Part shown: in pieces, positions 2,998 to 34,791 of the stretch
How positions within the stretch are numbered: the first letter of the stretch is position 1
Layout: every line of letters starts with the position of its first letter
Assembly: GCA_964445865.1 (NCBI GenBank)
Contig: CAYULZ010000002.1
Coordinates: 1-36,966, forward strand
DNA: 36,966 bases
Direction: 5' to 3'
Source of the DNA: an uncultured Lachnospiraceae bacterium
Lineage (GTDB): Bacteria > Bacillota > Clostridia > Oscillospirales > CAG-272
Notes under the pieces: model-generated
The model's database searches: none
Seen by the model: the letters and a program-made list of their open reading frames with translations, nothing else
Told to the model about the DNA's origin: nothing
Translations under genes and position numbers: made by a program

Positions 2998-3075
2998 TTT
3001 TGAAATCATGTACATTTTTTGACTTTTTTTTGATAAAATTTGAATTATTTTTGAAAAATCATTGCTATTTTGAAA
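2998..3075. repeat. Six helically phased T-tract/TTGA repeats upstream of the glycan-operon promoter
   Basis: TTGA cores begin at 3000, 3019, 3030, 3040, 3051 and 3070 (spacings 19, 11, 10, 11, 19), and most are preceded by a T-run. The region includes the palindrome ATTTTTGAAAAAT (3047-3059). Confidence 0.5.
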
Positions 3076-3090
3076 ACAATATGATATAAT
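3062..3090 (+). promoter_or_regulatory. Sigma-A promoter of the rfbF operon
   Basis: TTGCTA (3062-3067), 17-nt spacer, TGaTATAAT (TATAAT 3085-3090). It leaves a leader of about 100 nt before ATG 3195. Confidence 0.6.
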
Positions 3091-3194
3091 AGCCTCGGTA
3101 TATGTTTTTCCGGTCGGATGAATTCCGCAAACAAAAAACGGCAATAGCCGAAAGAAAGCAGAATAAGCACAGGACAGAAAGGATATCAATAAAA

Positions 3195-3989
3195 ATGAAG
3201 GTTGTTATTTTAGCAGGTGGCTTCGGAACGAGAATCTCGGAGGAGTCGCACCTCAAGCCGAAGCCTATGATCGAGATCGGCGGTATGCCCATTCTGTGGC
3301 ACATCATGAAGAACTACTCGGCGTACGGCTTCAATGAATTTATCATTTGCTGCGGCTATAAGCAGCACGTTATCAAGGATTTCTTTAACGATTATTTTCT
3401 CCATTCCTCGGACGTTACCTTTGATTTTACCAACAACACCAACCGCATGCGCGTTCACAAGAACATGACCGAGCAGTGGAAGGTTACGGTGGTCGATACG
3501 GGTCTTCACACTATGACGGGTGGCCGTATCAAGCGCATCAAGAAGTATCTGAATCCCGACGAGCCCTTTATGCTGACCTACGGCGACGGCTTGTCCGACG
3601 TGGATATGAACGCTCTTGTGAACTTCCATGAGGAGCACGGAAAGCTGGCTACGCTGACGGTGGTCAATGCAGGACAGCGCTTCGGTGTTATCAAAATGGC
3701 GAAGGGCGAGGATGCAGGAAGAATCACCTCCTTCCGTGAAAAGCGCGATAGCGACGGCAACCCGATCAACGGTGGCTTTATGGTTCTCGATCCTAAGGTC
3801 TTGGACTATATCGACGGCGATGATACGGTATTTGAGAAGAATCCGCTTGAGCAGCTGGCCAAGGACGGCGAGCTGATGGGCTTCCATCACGACGGCTTCT
3901 GGCAGTGCATGGATATGCAGAAGGACCGCGACAATCTGGAAAAGATCTGGCTCAGCGGTGAAGCACCTTGGAAGAATTGGGAAGATTAA
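3195..3989 (+). CDS. rfbF: Glucose-1-phosphate cytidylyltransferase
   Basis: MKVVILAGGFGTRISEESHLKPKPMIEIGG is a nucleotidyltransferase G-loop, and the length and sequence are typical of RfbF/DdhA. Internal Met32 of ORF 3102-3989 is chosen because it follows AGAAAGGA and because the family starts at this motif. Confidence 0.9.
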   Translation: MKVVILAGGFGTRISEESHLKPKPMIEIGGMPILWHIMKNYSAYGFNEFIICCGYKQHVIKDFFNDYFLHSSDVTFDFTNNTNRMRVHKNMTEQWKVTVVDTGLHTMTGGRIKRIKKYLNPDEPFMLTYGDGLSDVDMNALVNFHEEHGKLATLTVVNAGQRFGVIKMAKGEDAGRITSFREKRDSDGNPINGGFMVLDPKVLDYIDGDDTVFEKNPLEQLAKDGELMGFHHDGFWQCMDMQKDRDNLEKIWLSGEAPWKNWED

Positions 3990-3992
3990 ACG

Positions 3993-5060
3993 ATGTTGGA
4001 TATGAATTTTTACCGCGGAAAGCGGGTACTTGTAACGGGACATACGGGCTTTAAGGGCTCGTGGATGTGCCGCGCGCTCGTGAATGCGGGTGCAATCGTG
4101 ACGGGCTTTTCTCTCACGCCGCCCACCAAGCCGTCCTTGTTCGACATGGCGTCGATCGCGAACGGCATGGATTCGGTGATCGGAGATGTGCGCGATCTTG
4201 CCGCCATGAAGGCTTGCTTTGAGCGTGCCAAGCCCGAAATCGTTTTCCATCTGGCGGCCCAGCCGATCGTACGCGACAGCTATAAGGATCCGCATTATAC
4301 CTATGAGACCAACGTGATGGGCACGGTGAATATCCTTGAGTGCGTACGCACGTCGGATACCGTTCGCTCCTTCCTTAACGTCACGACCGATAAGGTCTAC
4401 CGTAACAACGAGTGGGAATGGGGCTACCGTGAGAACGAGCCGCTTGACGGCTTTGACCCCTATTCGAACAGCAAATCCTGCTCGGAGCTTGTAACGCATA
4501 GCTACAAGGATTCCTTCTTTGCCGACGGACACGTCGCCATTTCGACGGCGCGTGCAGGTAACGTGATCGGCGGTGGCGATTTCGCCAACGACCGCATCAT
4601 TCCCGACTGTATCCGCGCGGCTCTCGCCCATAACGATATCATCGTGCGCAACCCCCATTCTACGCGTCCGTATCAGTACGTGCTCGAGCCTGTGATGGCG
4701 TATCTCATGATCGCTGCCGCACAGTACGAGGACGGCAAGTACGCAGGCTACTACAATGTCGGACCCGACGAGTGTGATTGCTTCCGTACGGGCGCGCTCG
4801 TCGACCTGTTCTGCCGCACGTGGGGCGAGGATATGAAGTGGATCAACCGCTACGACGGAGGCCCCCACGAGGCCAATTTCCTGAAGCTTGATTGCTCTAA
4901 GCTCAAGACCGTCTTTGATTGGAAGCCCGTTTGGAATCTGGGTGAGGCCGTGGCAAGAACCGTCGAGTGGTCGAAGGTGATGCGCGACGGCGGCGATGTG
5001 ACGGCTTGTATGGACCGTCAGATCGAGGCCTTTATTGCAGAGAGCACGTGGATTCAATAA
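3993..5060 (+). CDS. rfbG: CDP-glucose 4,6-dehydratase
   Basis: Extended SDR with VLVTGHTGFKGSW (Rossmann GxxGxxG) and a PYSNSK YxxxK catalytic motif. Length about 355 aa. Starts 3 nt after rfbF. Confidence 0.9.
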   Translation: MLDMNFYRGKRVLVTGHTGFKGSWMCRALVNAGAIVTGFSLTPPTKPSLFDMASIANGMDSVIGDVRDLAAMKACFERAKPEIVFHLAAQPIVRDSYKDPHYTYETNVMGTVNILECVRTSDTVRSFLNVTTDKVYRNNEWEWGYRENEPLDGFDPYSNSKSCSELVTHSYKDSFFADGHVAISTARAGNVIGGGDFANDRIIPDCIRAALAHNDIIVRNPHSTRPYQYVLEPVMAYLMIAAAQYEDGKYAGYYNVGPDECDCFRTGALVDLFCRTWGEDMKWINRYDGGPHEANFLKLDCSKLKTVFDWKPVWNLGEAVARTVEWSKVMRDGGDVTACMDRQIEAFIAESTWIQ

Positions 5061-5146
5061 GGAGCATTTTTCAGAATCAGCGTCAGTTTTCTGCCGCTGA
5101 TTCTGTGTTTACAAGAAAAAATAACGCCGAAAGGCAGGGAGTAAGT

Positions 5147-6082
5147 ATGAAAAAAATCAGTATTATGATCCCGTGTTATAACGAGGAGGAAAACGTCGTC
5201 CCGATGAGTGAGGCGGTCGTAGCGCAAATGGAGCAGCTTCCGCAGTACGACTACGAGCTTCTCTTTATCGACAACTGCTCGCAGGATAACACGCGTCCGC
5301 TTTTGCGCGAGATCTGCGCAAAGAACCCGAAGATCCGCGCGATCTTCAATTCGAAGAATTTCGGTCAGTTCAATTCCCCCTATCACGGCTATTGCCAGAC
5401 TACGGGCGACTGCACCATCGGCATGTGCTGTGACTTTCAGGATCCCGTGGAGATGATCCCGAAGCTCATTGAGCAGTGGGAGGCAGGCTATAAGGTCGTA
5501 TGCTGTGTCAAGACCTCAAGTAAGGAAAATAAGCTGATGTACGCGCTTCGCAGTGTGTATTACCGCATGATCAAGAAGATGTCGAGTGTCGAGCAGATCG
5601 AGCATTTTACGGGCTTTGGACTGTACGACAAGAGCTTCATTCAGGTCATGCGAGATCTGGACGATCCCACGCCCTTCTTGCGCGGTGTCATCGCCGAGCT
5701 CGGCCCGAACATCAAGCTTGTGGAGTACGAGCAGGCGAAACGCAGAGCGGGGAAGACGCACAACAACTTCTTCTCGCTGTACGATGCGGCGATGCTCTCG
5801 TTTACCTCGTATACGAAGATCGGCCTGCGTCTTTCGTCCTTCCTCGGCATGCTGATGAGCGGCGGCAGCTTCTTTGCAGCCATTGTTTGCTGCATTCTTA
5901 AGCTGATCGATCCCAAGTATTTCTTTACGACGGGCACGGTACCGATCATTCTGACGATTCTGTTCGTCGGCGGTCTGCAGCTGTTCTTCATCGGCTTTGC
6001 AGGCGAATACATTATGTCCATCAACGCGCGTTCCATGAGAAGACCGCTCGTGGTGGAGGAGGAACGCATCAATTTTGATTGA
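5147..6082 (+). CDS. GT2-family polyprenol-phosphate glycosyltransferase (GtrB/CsbB/ArnC-like)
   Basis: IMIPCYNEEENV, FIDNCSQD and CDFQDP (DxD-type) motifs in a GT-A domain, plus two C-terminal TM helices (FFAAIVCCILKL; VPIILTILFVGGLQLFFIGFAG). This is the architecture of bactoprenol-phosphate sugar transferases. ATG 5147 (Met61 of the track ORF) is used. Confidence 0.85.
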   Translation: MKKISIMIPCYNEEENVVPMSEAVVAQMEQLPQYDYELLFIDNCSQDNTRPLLREICAKNPKIRAIFNSKNFGQFNSPYHGYCQTTGDCTIGMCCDFQDPVEMIPKLIEQWEAGYKVVCCVKTSSKENKLMYALRSVYYRMIKKMSSVEQIEHFTGFGLYDKSFIQVMRDLDDPTPFLRGVIAELGPNIKLVEYEQAKRRAGKTHNNFFSLYDAAMLSFTSYTKIGLRLSSFLGMLMSGGSFFAAIVCCILKLIDPKYFFTTGTVPIILTILFVGGLQLFFIGFAGEYIMSINARSMRRPLVVEEERINFD

Positions 6083-6116
6083 TCAACATACACCGCATGA
6101 AATGAAAGGAGAGCGC

Positions 6117-8033
6117 ATGATGAAACGATTGTTAGCATTGCTGATGTGCCTTGCTTGCCTGACAGGTGTTTTGTTCTCGTGTGACGATACACCTGCGGAA
6201 CCGACCGACACGACACCGACGGATACAACACCCGCCACCAACCCCTCCGGCGATGATACCCCCTCGACCGAAGCAGGCAATGCCGATCATTGGTATTTGC
6301 TGGGCTACACCATCGTGTACCCCAAAAACGCTTCCGCAACGGTGAAGGAGGCGGCCGCGCGTCTTCGAGCCAACATTGCCTCGAAGCTGAATTGGCCCGT
6401 AGAGCGCGTGCATATGATCTCCGATGACCAAACGACCGGAACCGCTTATTCGATTTTGATCGGCGAAACGAATCGCGAGCCATCGAAGGTTTATTATGAG
6501 AATCCCGACAATCGGGCATTTATCGTACACGCCGTCAACCGAACGATCGTTTTGGCAGGCTCTTCCGACGAGCGTGTCGACCAGGCGGTGCAATATTTTG
6601 AAGAGACGTATTTGGCGAACGCGGAGGAGGGCAAGATTGCCGCCGTAACCGATTACGCCCTGAAGCTCGACCCCAATCGTGTTCCTCCTGCAGATCAGGA
6701 TTTCGGCGGCTACGAATTCATCATTATGACCGATCTGCAGACCGACTATGAGGTTCAGGCGCCCGAGGAAATCGGCAGTGACGGTATCAACAAGGCGCTC
6801 TTCGAGCGTAACAAGCTGGTCGAGAGCAAGTACAACGTCAAGATCACCGAAAAGAGAAATCTTCACGCTACCGTAGACCAAGCAAACAGCTACCTGAAGG
6901 ATATGCAGTCCAGTGGTGACTACTTTGCCGATCTTTACTCGAACTATGCGATAAAGATGATTTCGAGCCATGCCACCCAAGGCTATTATCTGAACGTTTG
7001 CGACCTGCAATCTCTCCGCCTTGACGGCGAGTGGTGGGATCAGGATTTCATCAATGAGTTCAAGATCAACAACTACCTTTACACGCTGACAGGAGACATT
7101 CAGACCAATGACGAGATCCAGGAGATTCTGTTGGCGATGAATCTGTCGCTGTACAACAAGACCTATCCCGAAAAGAACTTCTACGACATCGTAGTCAAAA
7201 ATGGTGCTTGGACGTGGCAGGAATTTTACAATACGTGGATTAACTTCGGCTCGTATGATGGCGGCACGGCCGGTAAGGTAGACAGCGACGATAAGGTTGG
7301 CTATTACTACGACTGCCGTACGGCAAGCTATTTTTACATGGCGTCCGGACTGAATGCTTTTAGCGTCCAGAACAATCAGCCCGTTCTTACGATTGATTCC
7401 TCTAATGCACTGCTCGTGATGGATTTTCTGCGGTATATCACAGATGCGCACCAGAATCTCAAGACCGTTCGTCTTGACGATGTGAATACAGGTGGTGGCT
7501 ATGAGGCAGGTAATAAACACTTCGCAGCAGGAAAGGCTCTGTTTGTTACCGGCCGCCTTGATGACATGATTACCTATCAGCAGGATATGCAGGATACCGT
7601 GGCGTACGTGCCCTTTCCGAAGTATGCAGCCAATCAGGATCGCTACTACTCACTCGTGCACATGTGCTTTACGCCGATCGCGATCAGCGCCAATGTTAGA
7701 GATGCAGAAAGAACCGCTTTGATTACCGAGGCACTCTGCTTCTATTCCGATGCGTTGGATCGTGAGGTGGAGGAGCTTCTGTTGGAGGAGACTGCCGATG
7801 AGGAGGTTCGCGAGATCCTTCAGCTGACGTTGGATTCCAAAACGTACGACATGGAGTATACGGCCAATATTATGGGTTGGACGGGTTTGACGAACGACAC
7901 GCTGTTCGTAAGGGGAAAGCTTAGTACGTACAAGGATGAGATGGATAATCTCTCTAAGCAGGCGATCAATGTTCGCGGCACCGGAACGCTGCAAAACTTC
8001 CTGAAAGCTTACGCGAATATGAATTTCAACTAA
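6117..8033 (+). CDS. Large lipoprotein: Thr/Pro linker, GH-accessory-like N-terminal domain, solute-binding-protein-like domain
   Basis: AAAGGAG lies 6 nt before ATG 6117. Signal peptide with Cys lipobox (MMKRLLALLMCLACLTGVLFSC). TPAEPTDTTPTDTTPATNP linker. The C-terminal ~430 aa resemble family-1 extracellular sugar-binding lipoproteins, but no ABC permease genes are nearby. Confidence 0.75.
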   Translation: MMKRLLALLMCLACLTGVLFSCDDTPAEPTDTTPTDTTPATNPSGDDTPSTEAGNADHWYLLGYTIVYPKNASATVKEAAARLRANIASKLNWPVERVHMISDDQTTGTAYSILIGETNREPSKVYYENPDNRAFIVHAVNRTIVLAGSSDERVDQAVQYFEETYLANAEEGKIAAVTDYALKLDPNRVPPADQDFGGYEFIIMTDLQTDYEVQAPEEIGSDGINKALFERNKLVESKYNVKITEKRNLHATVDQANSYLKDMQSSGDYFADLYSNYAIKMISSHATQGYYLNVCDLQSLRLDGEWWDQDFINEFKINNYLYTLTGDIQTNDEIQEILLAMNLSLYNKTYPEKNFYDIVVKNGAWTWQEFYNTWINFGSYDGGTAGKVDSDDKVGYYYDCRTASYFYMASGLNAFSVQNNQPVLTIDSSNALLVMDFLRYITDAHQNLKTVRLDDVNTGGGYEAGNKHFAAGKALFVTGRLDDMITYQQDMQDTVAYVPFPKYAANQDRYYSLVHMCFTPIAISANVRDAERTALITEALCFYSDALDREVEELLLEETADEEVREILQLTLDSKTYDMEYTANIMGWTGLTNDTLFVRGKLSTYKDEMDNLSKQAINVRGTGTLQNFLKAYANMNFN

Positions 8034-8067
8034 GGAATCGGAGATACCGAAAATAAACACAAGGCTT

Positions 8068-8098
8068 GGCGCCGACAGTACGCTGTCGGCGCCTTTTT
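8068..8098 (+). terminator. Intrinsic terminator of the glycan operon
   Basis: GGCGCCGACAG-TACG-CTGTCGGCGCC followed by TTTTT. Confidence 0.85.
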
Positions 8099-8171
8099 GC
8101 TTTTACCATCACGTTGCCATTGGAAAATGAATAAAAAATACTGAATATTCACGAAAAATATTCATTTTTCC

Positions 8172-8200
8172 TTGACTTTTTTTGGGGGTTGTTATATAAT
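8172..8200 (+). promoter_or_regulatory. Sigma-A promoter of the nusB array
   Basis: TTGACT (8172-8177), 17-nt spacer, TATAAT (8195-8200). Confidence 0.65.
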
Positions 8201-8295: not shown

Positions 8296-8748
8296 ATGAG
8301 TACTTTGTCCAGAAGAGAAGCCAGAGAGGCCGTGCTCGGTCTGCTGTTTGAAACCGAATTCCGTGCCGATGAATCGAGCACCGAGATCTTTGCCGTCTCG
8401 GTAGAGGATCGTGAAATTCCCGCAGATTCGTATATTGAAAAGGCGTATTTTGCCATCTGCGAAAAGCGCGAGGAGATCGACGCGATGATCGGAAACCACG
8501 CGAAGGGCTGGAAGACAAGCCGTCTGTCCAAGCTGTCGCGCTCGGTCTTGCGCTTGGCCGTGTACGAGATGCTATACGAGACCGAGATCCCGTACAGCGT
8601 GTCGATCAACGAGGCCGTTGAGCTTGCCAAGAAATACGACGAGGATCGTGCGCGCCCCTTTATCAACGGCGTGCTCAACTCGGTCAAAAACGAGCTGGAG
8701 AGCGAGAGCGGCGCATCGGCCGAGGCTTCCGCGGACGAAAGCAAATGA
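8296..8748 (+). CDS. nusB: Transcription antitermination factor NusB
   Basis: MSTLSRREAREAVLGLLFE...LAVYEMLYETEIPYSVSINEAVELAKKY...FINGVL is typical NusB. Start taken at Met8 of the track ORF. Confidence 0.9.
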   Translation: MSTLSRREAREAVLGLLFETEFRADESSTEIFAVSVEDREIPADSYIEKAYFAICEKREEIDAMIGNHAKGWKTSRLSKLSRSVLRLAVYEMLYETEIPYSVSINEAVELAKKYDEDRARPFINGVLNSVKNELESESGASAEASADESK

Positions 8749-9698
8749 AGCCCTGTTACGTTGGCTTTGATACGAGCAATTATACCACGTCGGCGGCTGC
8801 CTGCACGGCAGACGGTGTTGTGATTGCTAACTGCAAATGCCCTCTGCCCGTAGCTGAGGGTCAGCGTGGCTTACGCCAATCGGACGCGGTATTTGCACAC
8901 GTAAAAAATCTTCCCGACGTTTGTCGGGCGCTTTCGGCGGCCATCGAGGGCTACACCCCCGTAGCGGTCGGCGTCTCTGCGCGTCCGCGTGATGCGGAGG
9001 GCTCTTATATGCCGTGCTTCCTGGCGGGAAAGGCCGCTGCGCACGCCTTCGCGGCTGATCGTGGCTTGTCGGTGCGTGAATTTTCCCATCAAAACGGTCA
9101 TGTCATGGCCGCACTCTATTCGAGTGGGGCAGGGGCCGCGCTCTTGTCCGCCCCCTTTTTCTCCTTTCATGTGTCAGGCGGTACGACCGAGCTTTTGCTC
9201 GTTACGCCGCAGGCGAACGGCTTTTCGTTGAGGCTCGTCGGTGAGACCGACGACATCAACGCAGGACAAGCCATCGACCGCGTCGGTGTCTCCATGGGAC
9301 TTTCCTTTCCGTGCGGCAAGGCGATGGAGACCTTGGCAACTGCATACGAGGGGAAGATTTTGCGCCACCCCGTGACCGTCAGAGACGGTCGGTGCAGTCT
9401 TTCGGGCGCGGAGAATATCGCACAGAAGCTTTACCGCCAAAGTGGCGACGAAAAGGCCGTTGCGGCCTTCGTCTTTGACTTCGTGGCGCGAACGCTCGTC
9501 GCGATGGGCGAGCACGCCATCGCGCGGCACGGAGCCCGTCCTGTGCTCTTTGCGGGAGGTGTGATGTCCAACGTCTGGATGCGAAAGATGCTTTGCGAGC
9601 ACTTTGATGCTTATTTTGCCGAGCCAGCCTTTTCCGCCGATAACGCAGCGGGCATCGCCCTGCTTTGTCGGCAGACGGCCATGGGGGATACGGTATGA
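8745..9698 (+). CDS. TsaD/Kae1 (peptidase M22/glycoprotease) family protein, short paralog
   Basis: GFDTSNYTTS (cf. ETSCDET), the metal motif HQNGH (HxxxH), GGVMSN and SADNAAGIA motifs of the ASKHA-fold TsaD family. 317 aa. ATGA overlaps at both ends (8745-8748 and 9695-9698). Confidence 0.8.
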   Translation: MKPCYVGFDTSNYTTSAAACTADGVVIANCKCPLPVAEGQRGLRQSDAVFAHVKNLPDVCRALSAAIEGYTPVAVGVSARPRDAEGSYMPCFLAGKAAAHAFAADRGLSVREFSHQNGHVMAALYSSGAGAALLSAPFFSFHVSGGTTELLLVTPQANGFSLRLVGETDDINAGQAIDRVGVSMGLSFPCGKAMETLATAYEGKILRHPVTVRDGRCSLSGAENIAQKLYRQSGDEKAVAAFVFDFVARTLVAMGEHAIARHGARPVLFAGGVMSNVWMRKMLCEHFDAYFAEPAFSADNAAGIALLCRQTAMGDTV

Positions 9699-19540: not shown

Positions 19541-20959
19541 ATGAATAAGTACAAACGCTTACTGTCGAACACAGCCATTCTGGGACTCGGCACCTTCGCT
19601 TCGAAGGTGCTCGTGTTCCTCTTGATGCCGCTGTATACCGCGATTTTGTCCGCCGAGGAATTCGGTGTGGCGGATCTCGTCGCGCAGACGGCCAATCTGT
19701 TGATCCCACTTGCGGCGGTTGGTATTTGCGACGGTCTGTTTCGCTTTACGCTCGAAACGGATAGCGGCGACCGCAAGAAGGTCTTTACTGCATCGGTCAC
19801 CGTGCTTGGTATCGGAAGTGCGGCGCTTGCGCTGATTGCGGCCCTCGTCTATTCCTTTCACGGGCCGTCGGTGGAATATCTGCCCATGATCGTCTTGTAC
19901 GTGGTCTGTGCGAATTTCCATTCGGCCTTTGCGCACTATCTGCGCGCCAAGGGACGTACGACGCTGTTTGCCGTGCAGGGAATTATCAATACGGTACTGA
20001 CCATTGCACTCAATATTTTGTTCCTCGTCGTATGGGACATGGGAAGCACGGGCTACGTGCTTTCGGTGGTCGTTGCCGATCTTACGCTCACCGTCGGCCT
20101 TTTTATCTTCTGCCGACTGTGGCGCGATTTGGACTTCCGCGCGTGGGATAATAAGGTCGTAAAGGCGCTCTTGAAATTCAGCATTCCGTATATTCCGACG
20201 ACCATGATGTGGCTCATCACCTCGGTCTCCGACCGCTATATCGTAACGATTTATTGCGGCACTGAGATTCACGGTCTGTATGCGGCGGCGAGTAAAATTC
20301 CTACGCTTGTCCTGCTTGTCAGCGGTGTGTTTATCGAAGCGTGGCATTTTTCGAGTGTGAAGGATTCCCTCGAAGAGCGTGCGGAATTTTTCGGTACCGT
20401 TTACCGTAACTACATGAGCATTATGTTTGTGGGAGCGTCGGTGCTGATCGCGGGCTCGAAGATCTTTACGCGCCTGCTTTTGGCCGATTCCTATTACAGC
20501 TCGTGGGAATTTGTGCCGATCCTCGTGATCGCTATGATCTTTTCTGCGTTCTCGGCCTTTTTCGGAAGCGTGTATTTTCTCGAAAAGAAGAGCATGCTTT
20601 CGATGCTGACCGCGATGTCGGGGGCGGTGATCAACGTAATTTTGAATTTCCTTCTCATTCCGCGCCACGGCGCGATGGGAGCGGCGGTGGCTACGCTGAT
20701 CAGCTATCTGGCTACCTATGCCATTCGTGCCTACGATACGGCGCATTACGTGAAATTCAATCAGCACCACGTGCGTGTGACGGTCAATACGGTCGCGCTT
20801 CTGGCACAGGCTTGGATTATGATCGAGGCGCCCCGTTATTGGCAGTACGCCCAAGTGGCCATCGTTTTATTCTTTGTTATCTTTAACGGAAAGGGAATCG
20901 TGTTGTCGGTTTCCCAGCTTTTTGGAAATATTTTTTCAAAAAAATCTAAAAAAAATTAA
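19541..20959 (+). CDS. MOP-superfamily oligosaccharide/polysaccharide flippase (Wzx-like)
   Basis: 472 aa with about 12-14 TM helices. N-terminus LLSNTAILGLGTFASKVLVFLLMPLYTAILSAEEFGVADL is typical of the Polysacc_synt family. Confidence 0.8.
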   Translation: MNKYKRLLSNTAILGLGTFASKVLVFLLMPLYTAILSAEEFGVADLVAQTANLLIPLAAVGICDGLFRFTLETDSGDRKKVFTASVTVLGIGSAALALIAALVYSFHGPSVEYLPMIVLYVVCANFHSAFAHYLRAKGRTTLFAVQGIINTVLTIALNILFLVVWDMGSTGYVLSVVVADLTLTVGLFIFCRLWRDLDFRAWDNKVVKALLKFSIPYIPTTMMWLITSVSDRYIVTIYCGTEIHGLYAAASKIPTLVLLVSGVFIEAWHFSSVKDSLEERAEFFGTVYRNYMSIMFVGASVLIAGSKIFTRLLLADSYYSSWEFVPILVIAMIFSAFSAFFGSVYFLEKKSMLSMLTAMSGAVINVILNFLLIPRHGAMGAAVATLISYLATYAIRAYDTAHYVKFNQHHVRVTVNTVALLAQAWIMIEAPRYWQYAQVAIVLFFVIFNGKGIVLSVSQLFGNIFSKKSKKN

Positions 20960-30370: not shown

Positions 30371-31870
30371 ATGCGAAAGAATATTTTACAGTACTTGGAA
30401 ACGACGGCCGCGCGCCTGCCCGATAAGCTCGCCTTCTCAACAGGGAAGGAGGGCATGACCTTCTCGGAGGTTCTTGCAGGGGCACGCGCCATCGGCTCGT
30501 ATCTTGCCGAAAACGGCTATTACCGTGAGCCGGTCGTGATCTTTATGGACAAGCATCCGCACACCGTGACGGCCTTTTTCGGCGCGATCATGGCGGGCTG
30601 CTTCTACGTTTGCATCGACGAAAAAATGCCGCATACGCGCATCGAGGCCATCTTTGATAGCCTTAAGCCACGCGTGCTGATCGCGGATAAAAAGAATATG
30701 GCCGTAGCCGAAACACTGGGTGTCGAGCGTGTCTGCCTTTACGACGACGTGGCAAGCACCGAGGTCGACGACGCGCGCCTTGCCGAGGTTCGTCGCCATC
30801 AGTGTGATACCGACGCGATCTACGTGGTTTTTACCTCGGGCTCGACGGGCATCCCGAAGGGCGTGGTGGCTTGCCACCGCTCGGTCATCGATTATACCGA
30901 GTCGCTCTGCGAGGCGATCGGCTTCTCGGAGGAGACGGTGTTTGCCAATCAGACGCCCCTCTATTTCGATGCCCCCTTAAAGGAGATCATGCCGACGCTC
31001 AAGCTCGGCGCGACGACCTATTTCGTTCCCAAAATGCTCTTTTCCTTTCCCGTGCGCCTGCTCGATTACCTCGACGAGCATCGCATCAATACGGTCTGCT
31101 GGGTGGTTTCCGCCCTCGTGCAGATCTCATCGCTAGGCGCGCTGGAGAAGAGAAGTCCCAAAACGCTTACCACCGTTTGCTTCGGTAGTGAAGTCTTTCC
31201 GCGCAAGCAGTACGATCTGTGGCGCGCGGCTCTGCCCGATGCGAAATTCTTCAATCTCTACGGTCCGACCGAGGCCACGGGCATGTCCTGCTATTGGGCG
31301 GCCACGCGTGCCCTTGACGAAAACGAGCCGATTCCCGTCGGCCGTCCCTTCGACAATACCGACATTCTGTTGCTCGACGACGAAAACCGTCTTTCGCAGG
31401 AGGGCGAGATCTGCATTCGCGGCACCTGCCTGACGATGGGATACTATAACAATCCCGAAAAGACCGACGAGGTCTTTGTGCAAAATCCGCTTTGTACGGC
31501 CTATCCCGAGCGTATTTACCGTACGGGTGACATCGGCCGTATCAACGCGCATGGCGAGCTTGTGTTCATCTCGCGCAAGGATTCGCAGATCAAGCATATG
31601 GGGCATCGCATCGAGCTCGGTGAGATCGACGCGGCGGCACAGAAGCATGTCGACGTGCGTCGCACGGCCTGCGTCTATGACGATACGCATAAGCGCATCG
31701 CGCTCTTTTACGTCGGCGATGTGGAGGAGGGAGCACTCTCGTCCTTCCTCGCTACCTATTTGCCTCGCTACATGATGCCCGCACTCGTCGTGCGTCTCCC
31801 CGCCATTCCCCTGACCGACAACGGCAAGACCGATCGCCGCACGCTCCGCGAGCAGGCTACGGCTCTTTGA
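30371..31870 (+). CDS. Carrier-protein ligase of the ANL adenylating superfamily (DltA-like)
   Basis: Adenylation core motifs VVFTSGSTGIPKG (A3), LYFDAPL (A4, with Asp), NLYGPTEAT (A5), YRTGD (A7), GRKDSQIKHMGHRIELGEI-type (A8), PLTDNGKTDRR (A10). 499 aa, a stand-alone A domain like DltA. Confidence 0.85.
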   Translation: MRKNILQYLETTAARLPDKLAFSTGKEGMTFSEVLAGARAIGSYLAENGYYREPVVIFMDKHPHTVTAFFGAIMAGCFYVCIDEKMPHTRIEAIFDSLKPRVLIADKKNMAVAETLGVERVCLYDDVASTEVDDARLAEVRRHQCDTDAIYVVFTSGSTGIPKGVVACHRSVIDYTESLCEAIGFSEETVFANQTPLYFDAPLKEIMPTLKLGATTYFVPKMLFSFPVRLLDYLDEHRINTVCWVVSALVQISSLGALEKRSPKTLTTVCFGSEVFPRKQYDLWRAALPDAKFFNLYGPTEATGMSCYWAATRALDENEPIPVGRPFDNTDILLLDDENRLSQEGEICIRGTCLTMGYYNNPEKTDEVFVQNPLCTAYPERIYRTGDIGRINAHGELVFISRKDSQIKHMGHRIELGEIDAAAQKHVDVRRTACVYDDTHKRIALFYVGDVEEGALSSFLATYLPRYMMPALVVRLPAIPLTDNGKTDRRTLREQATAL

Positions 31871-31899
31871 TTATTATTACGGAAAGAAAGGATCAAGCC

Positions 31900-32127
31900 A
31901 TGGATCAGTTGATTGAAATTCTTACCTCCTTACACCCCGACGTGGATTTTCGCACGGCGACCGACCTCGTCGACGAGGGCATTCTCGACTCGCTCGACAT
32001 CGTGACGCTCGTGACTGAGATCGACGCCGCGTTTGACGTGACGGTTCCCGCTGAGGAAATCGTTCCTGAAAACTTTAATTCCGCCGAGGCGCTGATGGCA
32101 TTGATTGCGCGTCTCGACGAGGTCTGA
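31900..32127 (+). CDS. Acyl/peptidyl carrier protein (DltC-like)
   Basis: 75 aa with GILDSLDIVTLVTEID, a phosphopantetheine Ser in a DSL motif. AAAGGA lies upstream of ATG 31900 (Met12 of the track ORF). Confidence 0.8.
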   Translation: MDQLIEILTSLHPDVDFRTATDLVDEGILDSLDIVTLVTEIDAAFDVTVPAEEIVPENFNSAEALMALIARLDEV

Positions 32128-32139
32128 TCGGATAGAACG

Positions 32140-33729
32140 ATGCTGTTTACCTCATACGGCTTCCTCGCCTTTCTCGTCCTGCTGTTTGCCGTCTATTATC
32201 TGGCGCCGCGCCGTTGGCAATGGGGCATTCTGCTCGTCGCAAGCTATTCGTTTTACGCCTTTGCGGGTTTGCAGTATCTGCTCTTTATCCTTCTGACGAC
32301 GCTTTCGTCGTATCTCGTCGCGCGCTTGATGGCTCGCGGCCACCGCAGAGAAGAGGACTATCTTTCTCTACATAAGGCAGATATGGAAAAGGACGCACGG
32401 AAGGCTTACAAGGCAAAAGAGAAGAAAAAGCGCTTCCGCATTCTTGTTTGCGGTCTCGTTCTCAATTTCGGCGTGCTTGCGGTGCTCAAATACACGGGCT
32501 TTGCTGTCTATAATCTTAACGGTCTGCTCGGCGCATTCGGGAAAGAGCCGTTGACGATTCCGTCGCTGCTCTTGCCGATGGGTATCTCCTTTTATACCTT
32601 CCAGACAATGGGATATCTGATCGACGTCTACCGTGCGAAGGTGACGGCCGAGAAAAATCCCGCGCGCCTTGCGCTCTTCGTCTCGTTCTTCCCGCAGCTC
32701 GTGCAGGGACCAATCTCGCGCTACGGCGACCTCGCCGAACAGCTTTACGCGCCGCATTCCTTTGACGGCCGTAGCTTTTCGAGCGGCCTTTGGCGCATTC
32801 TGTGGGGCTATTTCAAAAAGCTCGTCATCGCCGACCGCGTGCTCGTCGCTATGAACACCATGCTCGACGCGCCCGAGGAATTCCGCGGTGCTTACGTGGC
32901 GCTGCTGATCCTCTTGTATTCGGTGCAGATCTACGCCGACTTTACGGGCGGTATCGACATCACGATCGGTATTGCCGAGGCTCTTGGTATCCGCCTTGCC
33001 GAAAACTTCGAGCGCCCCTTCTCGTCGACCTCGACGAAGGAATATTGGCGGCGCTGGCACATCACGATGGGTACGTGGTTTACCGACTACGTCTTTTATC
33101 CCATTTCGGTCTGCCGTCCCATGATGAAGCTCTCTAAGTGGAGCCGCGCGAAGCTCGGCACGACCGTCGGCAAGCGCGTGCCCGTGTATCTTGCTACGAT
33201 CGTCACGTGGTTTTTGACCGGACTTTGGCACGGTGCGGGCTGGAACTTCATCGTGTGGGGACTTCTTAACTGCGCGGTGATCCTCGTCTCGCAGGAGCTC
33301 GAGCCGCTCTACCGCCGCTTCCATGAGAAATTCCCGCGTCTCGGCACGTCGCGTGCTTACCATGATTTTGCCGCCACGCGAACCTTCCTTCTGATGGGCC
33401 TGATCCGCTCGCTCGACTGCTATCGCAACGTCGGCATGAGCTTCCGTATGTGGGGCAGTATGCTCACGGTATGGAACTGGGGTGATCTCTTTGGCGGCGG
33501 AATTCTCGATCTCGGCCTTTCGGTCGCAGACCTCATCATTCTTGCGGTCGCGGTAGCCTTCGTATTTTTCGTCAGCCGCAGAGAGGCAAAGGGAAGCGTG
33601 CGCGATTGGCTCTGGGAGCGTCCCGTGCGTGCGTCGGCTATCGCCGTCGTGCTGCTGCTTTGCGTCGTAATGCTTGGTGCATACGGTCACGGCTACGACG
33701 CGTCGCAATTCATCTATAATCAATTTTAA
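32140..33729 (+). CDS. MBOAT-family membrane O-acyltransferase (AlgI/DltB-like)
   Basis: Multi-TM protein of 529 aa. PMGISFYTFQ, FFPQLVQGPI, YWRRWHITM and the catalytic-His region FLTGLWHGAGWNF are typical MBOAT motifs. Confidence 0.9.
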   Translation: MLFTSYGFLAFLVLLFAVYYLAPRRWQWGILLVASYSFYAFAGLQYLLFILLTTLSSYLVARLMARGHRREEDYLSLHKADMEKDARKAYKAKEKKKRFRILVCGLVLNFGVLAVLKYTGFAVYNLNGLLGAFGKEPLTIPSLLLPMGISFYTFQTMGYLIDVYRAKVTAEKNPARLALFVSFFPQLVQGPISRYGDLAEQLYAPHSFDGRSFSSGLWRILWGYFKKLVIADRVLVAMNTMLDAPEEFRGAYVALLILLYSVQIYADFTGGIDITIGIAEALGIRLAENFERPFSSTSTKEYWRRWHITMGTWFTDYVFYPISVCRPMMKLSKWSRAKLGTTVGKRVPVYLATIVTWFLTGLWHGAGWNFIVWGLLNCAVILVSQELEPLYRRFHEKFPRLGTSRAYHDFAATRTFLLMGLIRSLDCYRNVGMSFRMWGSMLTVWNWGDLFGGGILDLGLSVADLIILAVAVAFVFFVSRREAKGSVRDWLWERPVRASAIAVVLLLCVVMLGAYGHGYDASQFIYNQF

Positions 33730-33741
33730 CGGAAACGCACC

Positions 33742-34791
33742 ATGAAAAAACGAATTTTGATCTCGGTGTCGGCGACTCTCGTGCTCGTGCTTCTGCTCGG
33801 GTGCGCGCAGGCACTGGTAACACCGAAATATACCGATAATCCCGAGGGGGCGCTGATCGGAGAATATTACGCCTCTGGCCTTGACCACGACGTGCTCTTT
33901 ATCGGAGATTGCGAGGTCTATGAAAGCTTTGTTCCCACGGTTCTGTGGGAGGAATACGGCATTCGCTCGTACGTGCGGGGCAGTGCCCAGCAGCTTACGT
34001 GGCAATCCTACTACCTCTTGGAGGAGACCTTTCAATACGAAAAGCCCAAGACTGTGGTCTTCAACGTGTTGGCACTCAAATACGGTACGCCGCAGAACGA
34101 GGCCTATAATCGCATGACGCTCGACGGCATGAAGTGGTCGCGTATCAAATGGAACGCGATCCGTGCCTCGATGACCGAGGACGAGAGCATGGTGGACTAC
34201 CTCTTTCCGCTCTTGCGATTCCATTCGCGCATTACGTCGCTCACGGGCGATGATTTCCGATATGCCTTCCGCGCACCGACCGTCTCGCATAACGGTTATC
34301 TCATGCAGACGGGCATCGAGCCGATGACCGACGAGGACGTGTACGTTCGCGGTCTTTCGGATTATACGCTTCCCCCGACGGCGATGGAATACCTCGATAA
34401 GATGCGCCTGCTTTGTGAAGAAAATGGCGCGGAGCTGATCCTCATCAAATCCCCGACCAACTCGTGGGGCTATTGGTGGTACGATGAGTGGGACGCACAG
34501 GTGGTCGACTATGCCGCCGCGCACGGACTTTCCTATTATAATTTTATACCCGCGTGCGAGGAGATCGGGATCGATTGGCAGCGCGACACCTATGACCGCG
34601 GTGTTCACCTGAACGTCTACGGCGCGGAAAAAATGACGCGCTATTTCGGCAAGCTTCTCTGTGAAAAGCACGGCTATGAAGCGAACACGCCGCAAAAGGG
34701 AAGTGATCCTGCATGGGATGCGCGCGTCACATGCTATTACGAGCAGAAAACAGCGCTCGAACAAGAAACGAAAAAGGAGAATAACTCATGA
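33742..34791 (+). CDS. DltD/SGNH-fold-like lipoprotein with Cys at the expected nucleophile position
   Basis: Lipobox LLLGC. Block-I-like VLFIGDCEVYES (Cys57, codon TGC at 33910-33912). C-terminal YDRGVHLNVYGAEKM resembles the D..H block of SGNH/DltD proteins. Confidence 0.7.
   Translation: MKKRILISVSATLVLVLLLGCAQALVTPKYTDNPEGALIGEYYASGLDHDVLFIGDCEVYESFVPTVLWEEYGIRSYVRGSAQQLTWQSYYLLEETFQYEKPKTVVFNVLALKYGTPQNEAYNRMTLDGMKWSRIKWNAIRASMTEDESMVDYLFPLLRFHSRITSLTGDDFRYAFRAPTVSHNGYLMQTGIEPMTDEDVYVRGLSDYTLPPTAMEYLDKMRLLCEENGAELILIKSPTNSWGYWWYDEWDAQVVDYAAAHGLSYYNFIPACEEIGIDWQRDTYDRGVHLNVYGAEKMTRYFGKLLCEKHGYEANTPQKGSDPAWDARVTCYYEQKTALEQETKKENNS

Follow-up and report, generated by a model that had tools for sequence, protein, structure and literature searches.

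We analysed a stretch of 36,966 nucleotides (the window), which is the entire contig C2 of a metagenome-assembled genome (MAG) from an uncultured Lachnospiraceae bacterium (assembly GCA_964445865.1, contig CAYULZ010000002.1), and concentrated on positions 3062 to 8200, where two genes for a cytidine diphosphate (CDP)-linked sugar, rfbF and rfbG, are followed by the gene of a polyprenol-phosphate glycosyltransferase of family 2 (GT2) and by a lipoprotein gene. An earlier interpretation made from the letters of the window (the sequence-only reading) had described a truncated CDP-deoxyhexose pathway feeding this GT2 and had proposed three explanations: CDP-glucose or its 4-keto-6-deoxy derivative is the donor, the missing steps are encoded elsewhere, or the lipoprotein has an unrecognised role. 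The features of the locus are as follows (aa, amino acids).

3062..3090, + strand: promoter-like site, TTGCTA-17-TATAAT with TG extension (consensus scan, 10/12 matches; a consensus match only)
3195..3989, + strand: rfbF, glucose-1-phosphate cytidylyltransferase, 264 aa (TIGR02623 equivalog, 381 bits, cut-off 300)
3993..5060, + strand: rfbG, CDP-glucose 4,6-dehydratase, 355 aa (TIGR02622 equivalog, 431 bits, cut-off 278)
5072..5106, + strand: stable hairpin 3' of rfbG (the enclosing 5058-5150 folds at -28.2 kcal/mol, z -3.6)
5147..6082, + strand: GtrB/ArnC-type polyprenol-phosphate GT2 of a divergent C-x-D branch, 311 aa (PF00535, structure alignments, two C-terminal transmembrane helices)
6117..8033, + strand: lipoprotein, 638 aa (signal peptide and LFSC lipobox)
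8068..8093, + strand: intrinsic terminator-like hairpin closing the unit (11 bp stem, 9 G-C pairs, T-run)
8172-8200: promoter-like site of nusB, after the terminator-like hairpin

The first promoter-like site sits in an AT-rich spacer 5' of rfbF, and the four genes form one unit in which the lipoprotein gene, 34 bp after that of the GT2 and with no terminator between them, is apparently co-transcribed. The open reading frame (ORF) of the GT2 can be extended upstream in frame to 4967; relatives share the ATG at 5147. No reductase, epimerase, RfbH, GtrA or C-type glycosyltransferase (GT-C) is encoded in 3195-8033 or in the rest of the window. The positions and families given for rfbF, rfbG and the GT2 in the sequence-only reading were thus correct, and its statement that finishing enzymes and partners are missing is true of the locus and of the window.

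The assignment of the GT2 to the GtrB type, with two C-terminal transmembrane (TM) helices, was likewise borne out. The protein matches PF00535 at 80.7 bits, aligns over its full length with the GtrB structure 5EKE (E 5e-36, residues 3-303) and also with the ArnC structure 9HWJ (E 3.5e-30), and carries hydrophobic helices at about 229-260 and 259-287. Its scores stay below the equivalog cut-offs of PgfS (NF047588, 167 against 500) and ArnC (NF007986, 117 against 529).

We then compared the locus with its counterparts in the same genus. Among the first 24 genus genomes, 14 have a GT2 orthologue (74-83% identity), the cassette being accessory in the genus and carried by about 57% of the sampled genomes. 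All ten loci that could be compared over a wide region show the order rfbF-rfbG-[gene of about 1 kb]-GT2, and where the contigs are longer the GT2 gene is followed by nusB, a TsaD-like gene and xseA, the same as in the window. In each of these ten loci the extra gene encodes a short-chain dehydrogenase/reductase (SDR) of about 308 aa that belongs to the NAD-dependent epimerase/dehydratase family (PF01370), and the SDR and the GT2 co-occur strictly in the 24 genomes (both in 14/14, neither in 10/10). In the window, the gap between rfbG and the GT2 gene measures 86 bp and holds no SDR gene. The hairpin after rfbG is conserved in the genus, with its 35 nt 97% identical to those of one relative's locus (L036); in relatives it precedes the SDR gene, and in the window the ribosome-binding site of the GT2 gene comes directly after it, so that the retained hairpin running straight into this site marks a deletion junction. 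The ancestral arrangement of the genus is rfbF-rfbG-SDR-GT2 beside nusB, together with a separate rfbH locus that includes a gene for a thiamine diphosphate (ThDP) enzyme, and this genome is the exception, in which the conserved locus no longer has its reductase gene and has acquired the lipoprotein gene downstream. These results come close to overturning the truncation described in the sequence-only reading, as every relative examined has the reductase gene within this conserved locus, from which it is absent in this genome.

A separate observation concerns the gene between nusB and xseA (8745-9698, + strand). Its TsaD/Kae1-like product scores 95 bits against a TsaD cut-off of 296, is found in the same place in genus relatives with 64-67% identity, and may be a divergent paralogue.

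Since the window is one contig of a MAG of 1.68 Mb and 231 contigs (73.7% complete, 1.7% contamination), absence from it says little about the genome, and homologues of the missing genes were found on other contigs. Exactly one homologue of the cassette SDR is present (C91:1609-2514); its identity is 62% to the in-locus SDR of L036 and 51-62% over the genus relatives, and the gene immediately before it encodes a FolC-like Mur ligase. In the relatives the only SDR is the in-locus copy, and five of them have no SDR beside the FolC-like gene. An RfbH (NF011936, 711 bits, cut-off 423) with 79-89% identity to its genus orthologues is encoded at C77:6025-7362. C1:4134-8225 contains a trio of genes for an HMGL-type aldolase, a ThDP enzyme and a HAD phosphatase; the ThDP enzyme reaches none of the acetolactate-synthase cut-offs (351 against 538). 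A GtrA-family gene lies on C16 and a YfhO gene is split across C161 and C34. The housekeeping genes of C1 and C91 are 65-78% identical to those of genus relatives and C77 is syntenic with a relative, which argues that these contigs come from the same lineage. As the genus loci contain the SDR and the other steps lie on other contigs, the pathway is dispersed and not truncated, and the puzzle of its missing enzymes is largely resolved. Of the three earlier explanations, encoding of the missing steps elsewhere is the one that is supported, and we conclude that the locus probably encodes the entry and exit of a CDP-sugar pathway, with the genes for its middle steps located elsewhere in this genome.

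The whole-genome search proposed with the sequence-only reading recovered RfbH, the SDR, GtrA and YfhO, and gave neither a reductase of the E3 type nor a GT-C of the PMT_2 or Glucos_trans_II (GtrII-type) families, for which family searches of the genome were negative. Translated searches (tblastn) of the genome with GT2-linked partners from other cassette loci, a GtrA (L074), a GtrII (L076), an ArnE/F-like pair (L118) and a 13-TM protein (L107), produced no hits either. Two neighbours of the dispersed genes were considered as GT-C candidates and rejected: the 1151-aa protein beside rfbH on C77 is a surface protein with a signal peptide and a C-terminal membrane anchor, and the neighbour of the C1 trio, of 681 aa, is devoid of TM segments.

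Several further neighbours can be recorded. The gene of the 1151-aa protein (L147, 2031-5486, - strand), which has no family match, is inserted between thiF and rfbH in comparison with the corresponding locus of the relative G019. The GtrA gene on C16 (L046, 5317-9047) stands between uppP (BacA), a DUF4093/Toprim gene and a fused Lnt-like/glycerophosphodiester phosphodiesterase gene. Directly 5' of the aldolase-ThDP-HAD trio, C1 encodes a 783-aa TIR-domain protein with TPR/Sel1 repeats (L148, 1568-3919) that looks defence-like. In the window itself, a MOP-family flippase (19541-20959, + strand; PF01943 Polysacc_synt, 73 bits) is encoded after a yebC-like gene, away from any glycan genes, and could serve as an alternative exporter of a lipid-linked intermediate.

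The origin of the dispersed genes points to replacement of the late steps. Genus relatives keep rfbH and the ThDP gene in a second locus, and their ThDP enzymes are 42-47% identical to that of C1. In GT2-linked cassettes of other bacteria (L085, L141 and L102), by comparison, the same trio has an aldolase that is 58-64%, a ThDP enzyme that is 73-79% and a HAD protein that is 43-51% identical to the C1 proteins. The rfbH locus of C77 is syntenic with that of G019, with a terminator after rfbH where the ThDP gene is expected. A quick maximum-likelihood tree placed the C91 SDR among the cassette SDRs but outside the genus clade, as sister to that of L141, a cassette of the aldolase-ThDP-HAD type from a distant member of the Bacillota (approximate likelihood-ratio support 83, inside a clade at 96). 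A third arrangement, rfbH-aldolase-HAD-ThDP, was found in the genus member G051 (L197, 5139-10540), whose aldolase and HAD protein are just 31-36% identical to those of this genome. The most economical reading of these data is a module swap in which the native SDR and ThDP genes were deleted and a late module of foreign type is present instead, with its parts scattered; support for it is moderate, limited by the quick search behind the tree and by the use of a MAG. Such a replacement fits a serotype-like swap of the sugar side chain, typical of surface-antigen diversification.

To define the cassette beyond the genus, we surveyed one genome per species and collected 80 loci with GT2 orthologues (63-83% identity) from Lachnospiraceae, Oscillospiraceae, Acutalibacteraceae, Eubacteriaceae, Peptococcaceae and unclassified Clostridia, clustering the neighbouring ORFs and annotating the cluster representatives. 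Cultured bacteria with such a locus include Ruthenibacterium lactatiformans 585-1, Lachnospira pectinoschiza M83, Eubacterium album LFL-14, Jutongia huaianensis NSJ-37 and Lachnotalea glycerini DSM 28816. An SDR gene ends within 250 bp upstream of the GT2 gene in 63/80 loci, often with overlapping or near-abutting frames and across several families. RfbH is encoded nearby in 58/80, a YerE-like ThDP enzyme of about 610 aa in 53/80, an HMGL-type aldolase in 19/80 and a GtrA-family protein in 31/80, and a GtrII-type GT-C gene lies directly downstream of the GT2 gene in 9/80; rfbF and rfbG are present in most of the loci where the flank reaches far enough. Gene order varies, with rfbG downstream of the GT2 gene in several loci, so the linkage has been maintained despite rearrangement. 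In the loci with the ThDP enzyme, L118, L085 and L102 among them, this enzyme and a reductase, with or without the aldolase, are clustered with genes for CDP-4-keto-3,6-dideoxyglucose, and no other glycosyltransferase able to consume a CDP-sugar is conserved in the 80 loci. From its gene content, this conserved Clostridial cassette appears to couple CDP-deoxysugar tailoring to a divergent GtrB-type enzyme.

Individual loci hold possible replacements for the export and transfer partners. In Ruthenibacterium lactatiformans 585-1 (L118, 6926-7676) the GT2 gene is followed by genes for two ArnE/EamA-like membrane proteins of about 130 aa, which suggests that GtrA is replaced there by a flippase of the ArnE/F type. 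In Lachnotalea glycerini DSM 28816 (L107, 6971-8947) the gene directly after it encodes a protein of 659 aa that has about 13 TM segments and matches no Pfam family; proteins of this type, encoded in 7/80 loci and directly downstream of the GT2 in two of them, are a candidate GT-C of an undescribed family.

The active site distinguishes the GT2 of the cassette from its relatives. In the cryo-electron microscopy study of GtrB, D94 (the first Asp of the DxD motif) or D157 is named as the catalytic base and the metal is held by D96 and Q98; the first Asp of the motif (GtrB D94, ArnC D100) is called universally conserved and the likeliest base (PMC12698845). The GT2 of the window reads C94-C95-D96-F97-Q98-D99, with Cys94-Cys95-Asp96 aligned with D94-A-D96 of GtrB, and has Gly156 at the position of D157. 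In an alignment of 91 cassette-type GT2s with 7 non-cassette GtrB-like paralogues, position 94 of the cassette type is Cys in 84/91, Val in 7/91 and Asp in 0/91, position 156 is Gly in 91/91, and the metal-binding positions D96, Q98 and D99 are invariant (91/91). The paralogues, by contrast, keep D94 in 7/7 and D157 (D-F-R/K-L) in 6/7. The enzyme thus appears GtrB-like by fold and context, yet it fails two sequence features used in defining the mechanism of the family. If the pathway proposed below is right, the consistent loss of the two Asp residues proposed as catalytic would be of direct relevance to the GtrB/ArnC mechanism.

Combining these genes with published schemes, a pathway can be proposed. 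YerE, a ThDP enzyme, adds an acetyl branch to CDP-4-keto-3,6-dideoxy-D-glucose, and YerF then reduces the product; where the branch is longer, ErwE receives its keto-acid donor from the aldolase ErwI, and ErwF acts next (PMC9306805). The gene set described here matches this scheme for acyl-branched sugars, from which we infer a sugar of yersiniose or erwiniose type. In this bacterium, RfbF would make CDP-glucose and RfbG CDP-4-keto-6-deoxyglucose, both steps being strongly supported by the family models. By homology and conserved linkage, RfbH from C77 would remove the 3-hydroxyl group. The YerE/ErwE-like ThDP enzyme of C1, with its aldolase and HAD partners, would add an acyl branch at C4, and the C91 SDR would reduce the product to a CDP-linked acyl-branched 3,6-dideoxyhexose. 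The GT2 of the window would then transfer the branched sugar to undecaprenyl phosphate (Und-P), a GtrA-type protein would flip the lipid-linked sugar, and a GT-C, for which YfhO, the only one recognised in the genome, is a candidate, would attach it to a wall polymer. By analogy, cassettes with the ThDP enzyme only would give a yersiniose-like sugar and those with the aldolase a longer branch. The core of the sequence-only reading, a CDP-sugar pathway that feeds a polyprenol-phosphate GT2, holds up and is strengthened by the linkage conserved across Clostridia, with a CDP-sugar as the probable donor.

As for the acceptor, the window also contains Dlt-like genes on the + strand (30371-34791), comprising a DltA-like AMP-binding protein (30371-31870), a DltB-like MBOAT protein (32140-33729) and an unassigned 349-aa ORF (33742-34791). 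This operon suggests that teichoic-acid-type polymers exist in the bacterium and could be the acceptor of the sugar.

A number of points weigh against this pathway. No E3-type reductase (RfbI/AscD/DdhD) was found, either in the 74% complete genome, which has just two FNR-type ORFs of 249 and 281 aa, or among the conserved gene clusters of the 80 cassette loci, although a general reductase may stand in for a dedicated E3, as with SpnQ-type enzymes. YfhO and GtrA-family genes occur in 52/60 and 53/60 of the 60 genus genomes profiled, with or without the cassette, and so do not tell carriers of the cassette from non-carriers; the GtrA of this genome itself has close homologues in only 2/60. Use of a CDP-sugar by the GT2 is read from gene linkage only. 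The likeness of the ThDP enzyme and SDR to YerE and YerF is one of enzyme type and cluster makeup, and the tree of the SDRs comes from a quick search and is moderately supported. Finally, in a MAG that is 74% complete and broken into 231 contigs, trans genes on separate contigs could be from co-binned strains.

Among the alternatives to a dispersed CDP-sugar pathway, we considered it unlikely that the GT2 is an ordinary uridine diphosphate (UDP)-sugar enzyme whose position by CDP-sugar genes reflects co-regulation of surface-glycan genes with no channelling. To our knowledge, the characterised GtrB, ArnC, CsbB and DPMS-type enzymes all use UDP- or guanosine diphosphate (GDP)-linked sugars, which counts for this alternative, and we found no paper linking CDP-glucose with GtrB, nor one describing a CDP-fed GtrB-type system or this Clostridial cassette. 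GtrB and ArnC are UDP-sugar users (PMC12698845). However, the adjacency of SDR and GT2 persists across several families although the other genes are rearranged, and no alternative transferase for the CDP-sugar is conserved in the cassette loci. The distinct signature of the clade (C/V94 with G156 in 91/91) also sets it apart from the paralogues, and rfb genes are missing from the neighbourhood of four GtrB-like genes of related genomes that are not orthologues of this GT2.

Decay of the system in this lineage, with a non-working pathway and the remaining genes as leftovers, seemed similarly improbable to us. Two independent deletions with respect to the genus arrangement (the in-locus SDR and the rfbH-adjacent ThDP gene) and the accessory status of the cassette are in its favour. 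Yet there are no frameshifts or stops in rfbF, rfbG, the GT2 gene, rfbH or the C91 SDR, and the lost genes have intact replacements from the right families. Among the columns conserved in at least 95% of orthologues, 0/91 deviate in RfbF (77-89% identical to its genus orthologues), 1/144 in RfbG and 2/121 in the GT2, so that these three proteins keep practically all conserved columns and nothing in them suggests decay.

An assembly or binning artefact, in which the SDR-less junction or the contigs with the trans genes derive from different co-occurring strains, would be in keeping with the fragmentation, incompleteness and contamination of the MAG and with its split YfhO gene. We nevertheless consider it quite improbable, since the junction is clean and keeps both the conserved hairpin and the GT2 ribosome-binding site, C1, C77 and C91 carry genus-typical housekeeping genes, and the FolC-SDR arrangement of C91 and the SDR-less C2, each unique among the sampled genus genomes, complement one another.

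A pathway that is truly truncated, with the GT2 taking CDP-glucose or CDP-4-keto-6-deoxyglucose directly, would explain why the GT2 gene comes directly after rfbG with no reductase between and why both genes look intact, but we judge it very improbable. An SDR gene stands immediately before that of the GT2 in all genus relatives examined as well as in the 63 orthologue loci counted above, the RfbH, the ThDP module and the SDR homologue are kept elsewhere in the genome, and the GT2 is 74-83% identical to orthologues in complete cassettes, so that few sequence differences would have to account for a new donor. With the full set of later enzymes present and SDR and GT2 paired almost everywhere, these two early intermediates are unlikely donors, contrary to the first of the earlier explanations.

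The lipoprotein has a layout of signal peptide and lipobox, Thr/Pro stalk, N-terminal domain and a domain resembling carbohydrate-ABC substrate-binding proteins. Residues 190-638 match SBP_bac_1/8 (PF13416/PF01547) proteins (E 1e-31 to 1e-16), in agreement with the atlas features of the protein, although a Pfam search of the lipoprotein itself gave no match (noise only at E<=0.1) and a search of the PDB sequences none at E<=1. Closer relatives of about 500 aa (42-66% identity) are without the N-terminal domain, whose approximately 180 aa recur on metallo-beta-lactamase-domain lipoproteins of 750-800 aa on C32 (1-13684, L047) and C98 (L048), and the C-terminal 285 aa are 75% identical to a 282-aa ORF on C32. 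Together these proteins make up a modular lipoprotein family. The lipoprotein gene is absent from 10/10 genus loci and 80/80 cassette loci, and the 60 genus genomes have no homologue at E<=1e-30. By these comparisons it is a lineage-specific mosaic of the genome's own paralogues inserted before the terminator, and not a conserved member of the system. That it supplies a missing function, for instance acceptor recognition or extracytoplasmic transfer, is scarcely credible in view of this distribution and of the substrate-binding homology of its C-terminal 450 aa, despite its position 34 bp after the GT2 gene and before the terminator.

Returning to the dispersed CDP-sugar pathway, we put forward a wider hypothesis to which we give even chances: the widespread and distinct GtrB-like clade with Cys/Val94 and Gly156 would use CDP-linked acyl-branched 3,6-dideoxyhexoses for the Und-P-dependent, extracytoplasmic decoration of Gram-positive wall polymers, and serotype-like diversity would arise as bacteria of the same or of different genera exchange late modules (ThDP alone, aldolase-ThDP-HAD or aldolase-HAD-ThDP), with this genome as a case of a swap whose parts are scattered. 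If true, polyprenol-phosphate glycosyltransferases would not be limited to UDP and GDP donors, and yersiniose-type branched sugars would also decorate abundant gut and rumen Clostridia by way of a lipid carrier. The case also indicates that, when a pathway appears truncated in a fragmented MAG, the rest of the genome and related genomes should be examined before new chemistry is claimed.

Compared with known systems, the early steps are those of the CDP-3,6-dideoxyhexose pathway of Salmonella and Yersinia rfb clusters (ddh/asc), with RfbF, RfbG and RfbH all above their equivalog cut-offs; here, in contrast, there is no RfbI/E3 and no RfbS, RfbJ or RfbE equivalog, and the genes are spread over at least four contigs. 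With the yersiniose (YerE/YerF) and erwiniose/caryophyllose (ErwI/ErwE/ErwF, MMAR_2331-2333) clusters the cassette shares rfbF, rfbG and rfbH, a ThDP enzyme, a reductase and, in some loci, an aldolase. Those clusters serve Gram-negative lipopolysaccharide, mycobacterial lipooligosaccharides and antibiotics and work with cytoplasmic Leloir transferases (PMC9306805), whereas in the Clostridial cassette the only conserved transferase is the polyprenol-phosphate GT2, an E3 is lacking, and a HAD phosphatase stands beside the aldolase type.

On the transfer side, the three-component systems of extracytoplasmic glycosylation, namely GtrA/GtrB/GtrC of Shigella and Salmonella phages, CsbB/GtcA/YfhO of B. 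subtilis and GtlA/GtlB of Listeria, have the same GtrB fold with juxtamembrane and two C-terminal TM helices, and genes of their partner families occur beside the GT2, with GtrA in 31 of the 80 loci and the GtrII-type GT-C directly downstream in nine, while this genome has GtrA and YfhO genes at a distance. They differ in drawing on housekeeping UDP-glucose or UDP-N-acetylglucosamine, whereas the GT2 described here is genetically joined to a CDP-deoxysugar pathway of its own, belongs to a clade without D94 and D157 of GtrB, and in this genome is unlinked from the partner genes. The Arn pathway for lipid A aminoarabinose (ArnA/B/D-ArnC-ArnE/F-ArnT) uses a UDP-sugar and has other sugar chemistry and another acceptor, but it presents the same succession of tailoring enzymes, ArnC-type Und-P transferase, flippase and GT-C, and the Ruthenibacterium cassette (L118) shares with it the ArnE/F-like pair after the GT2.

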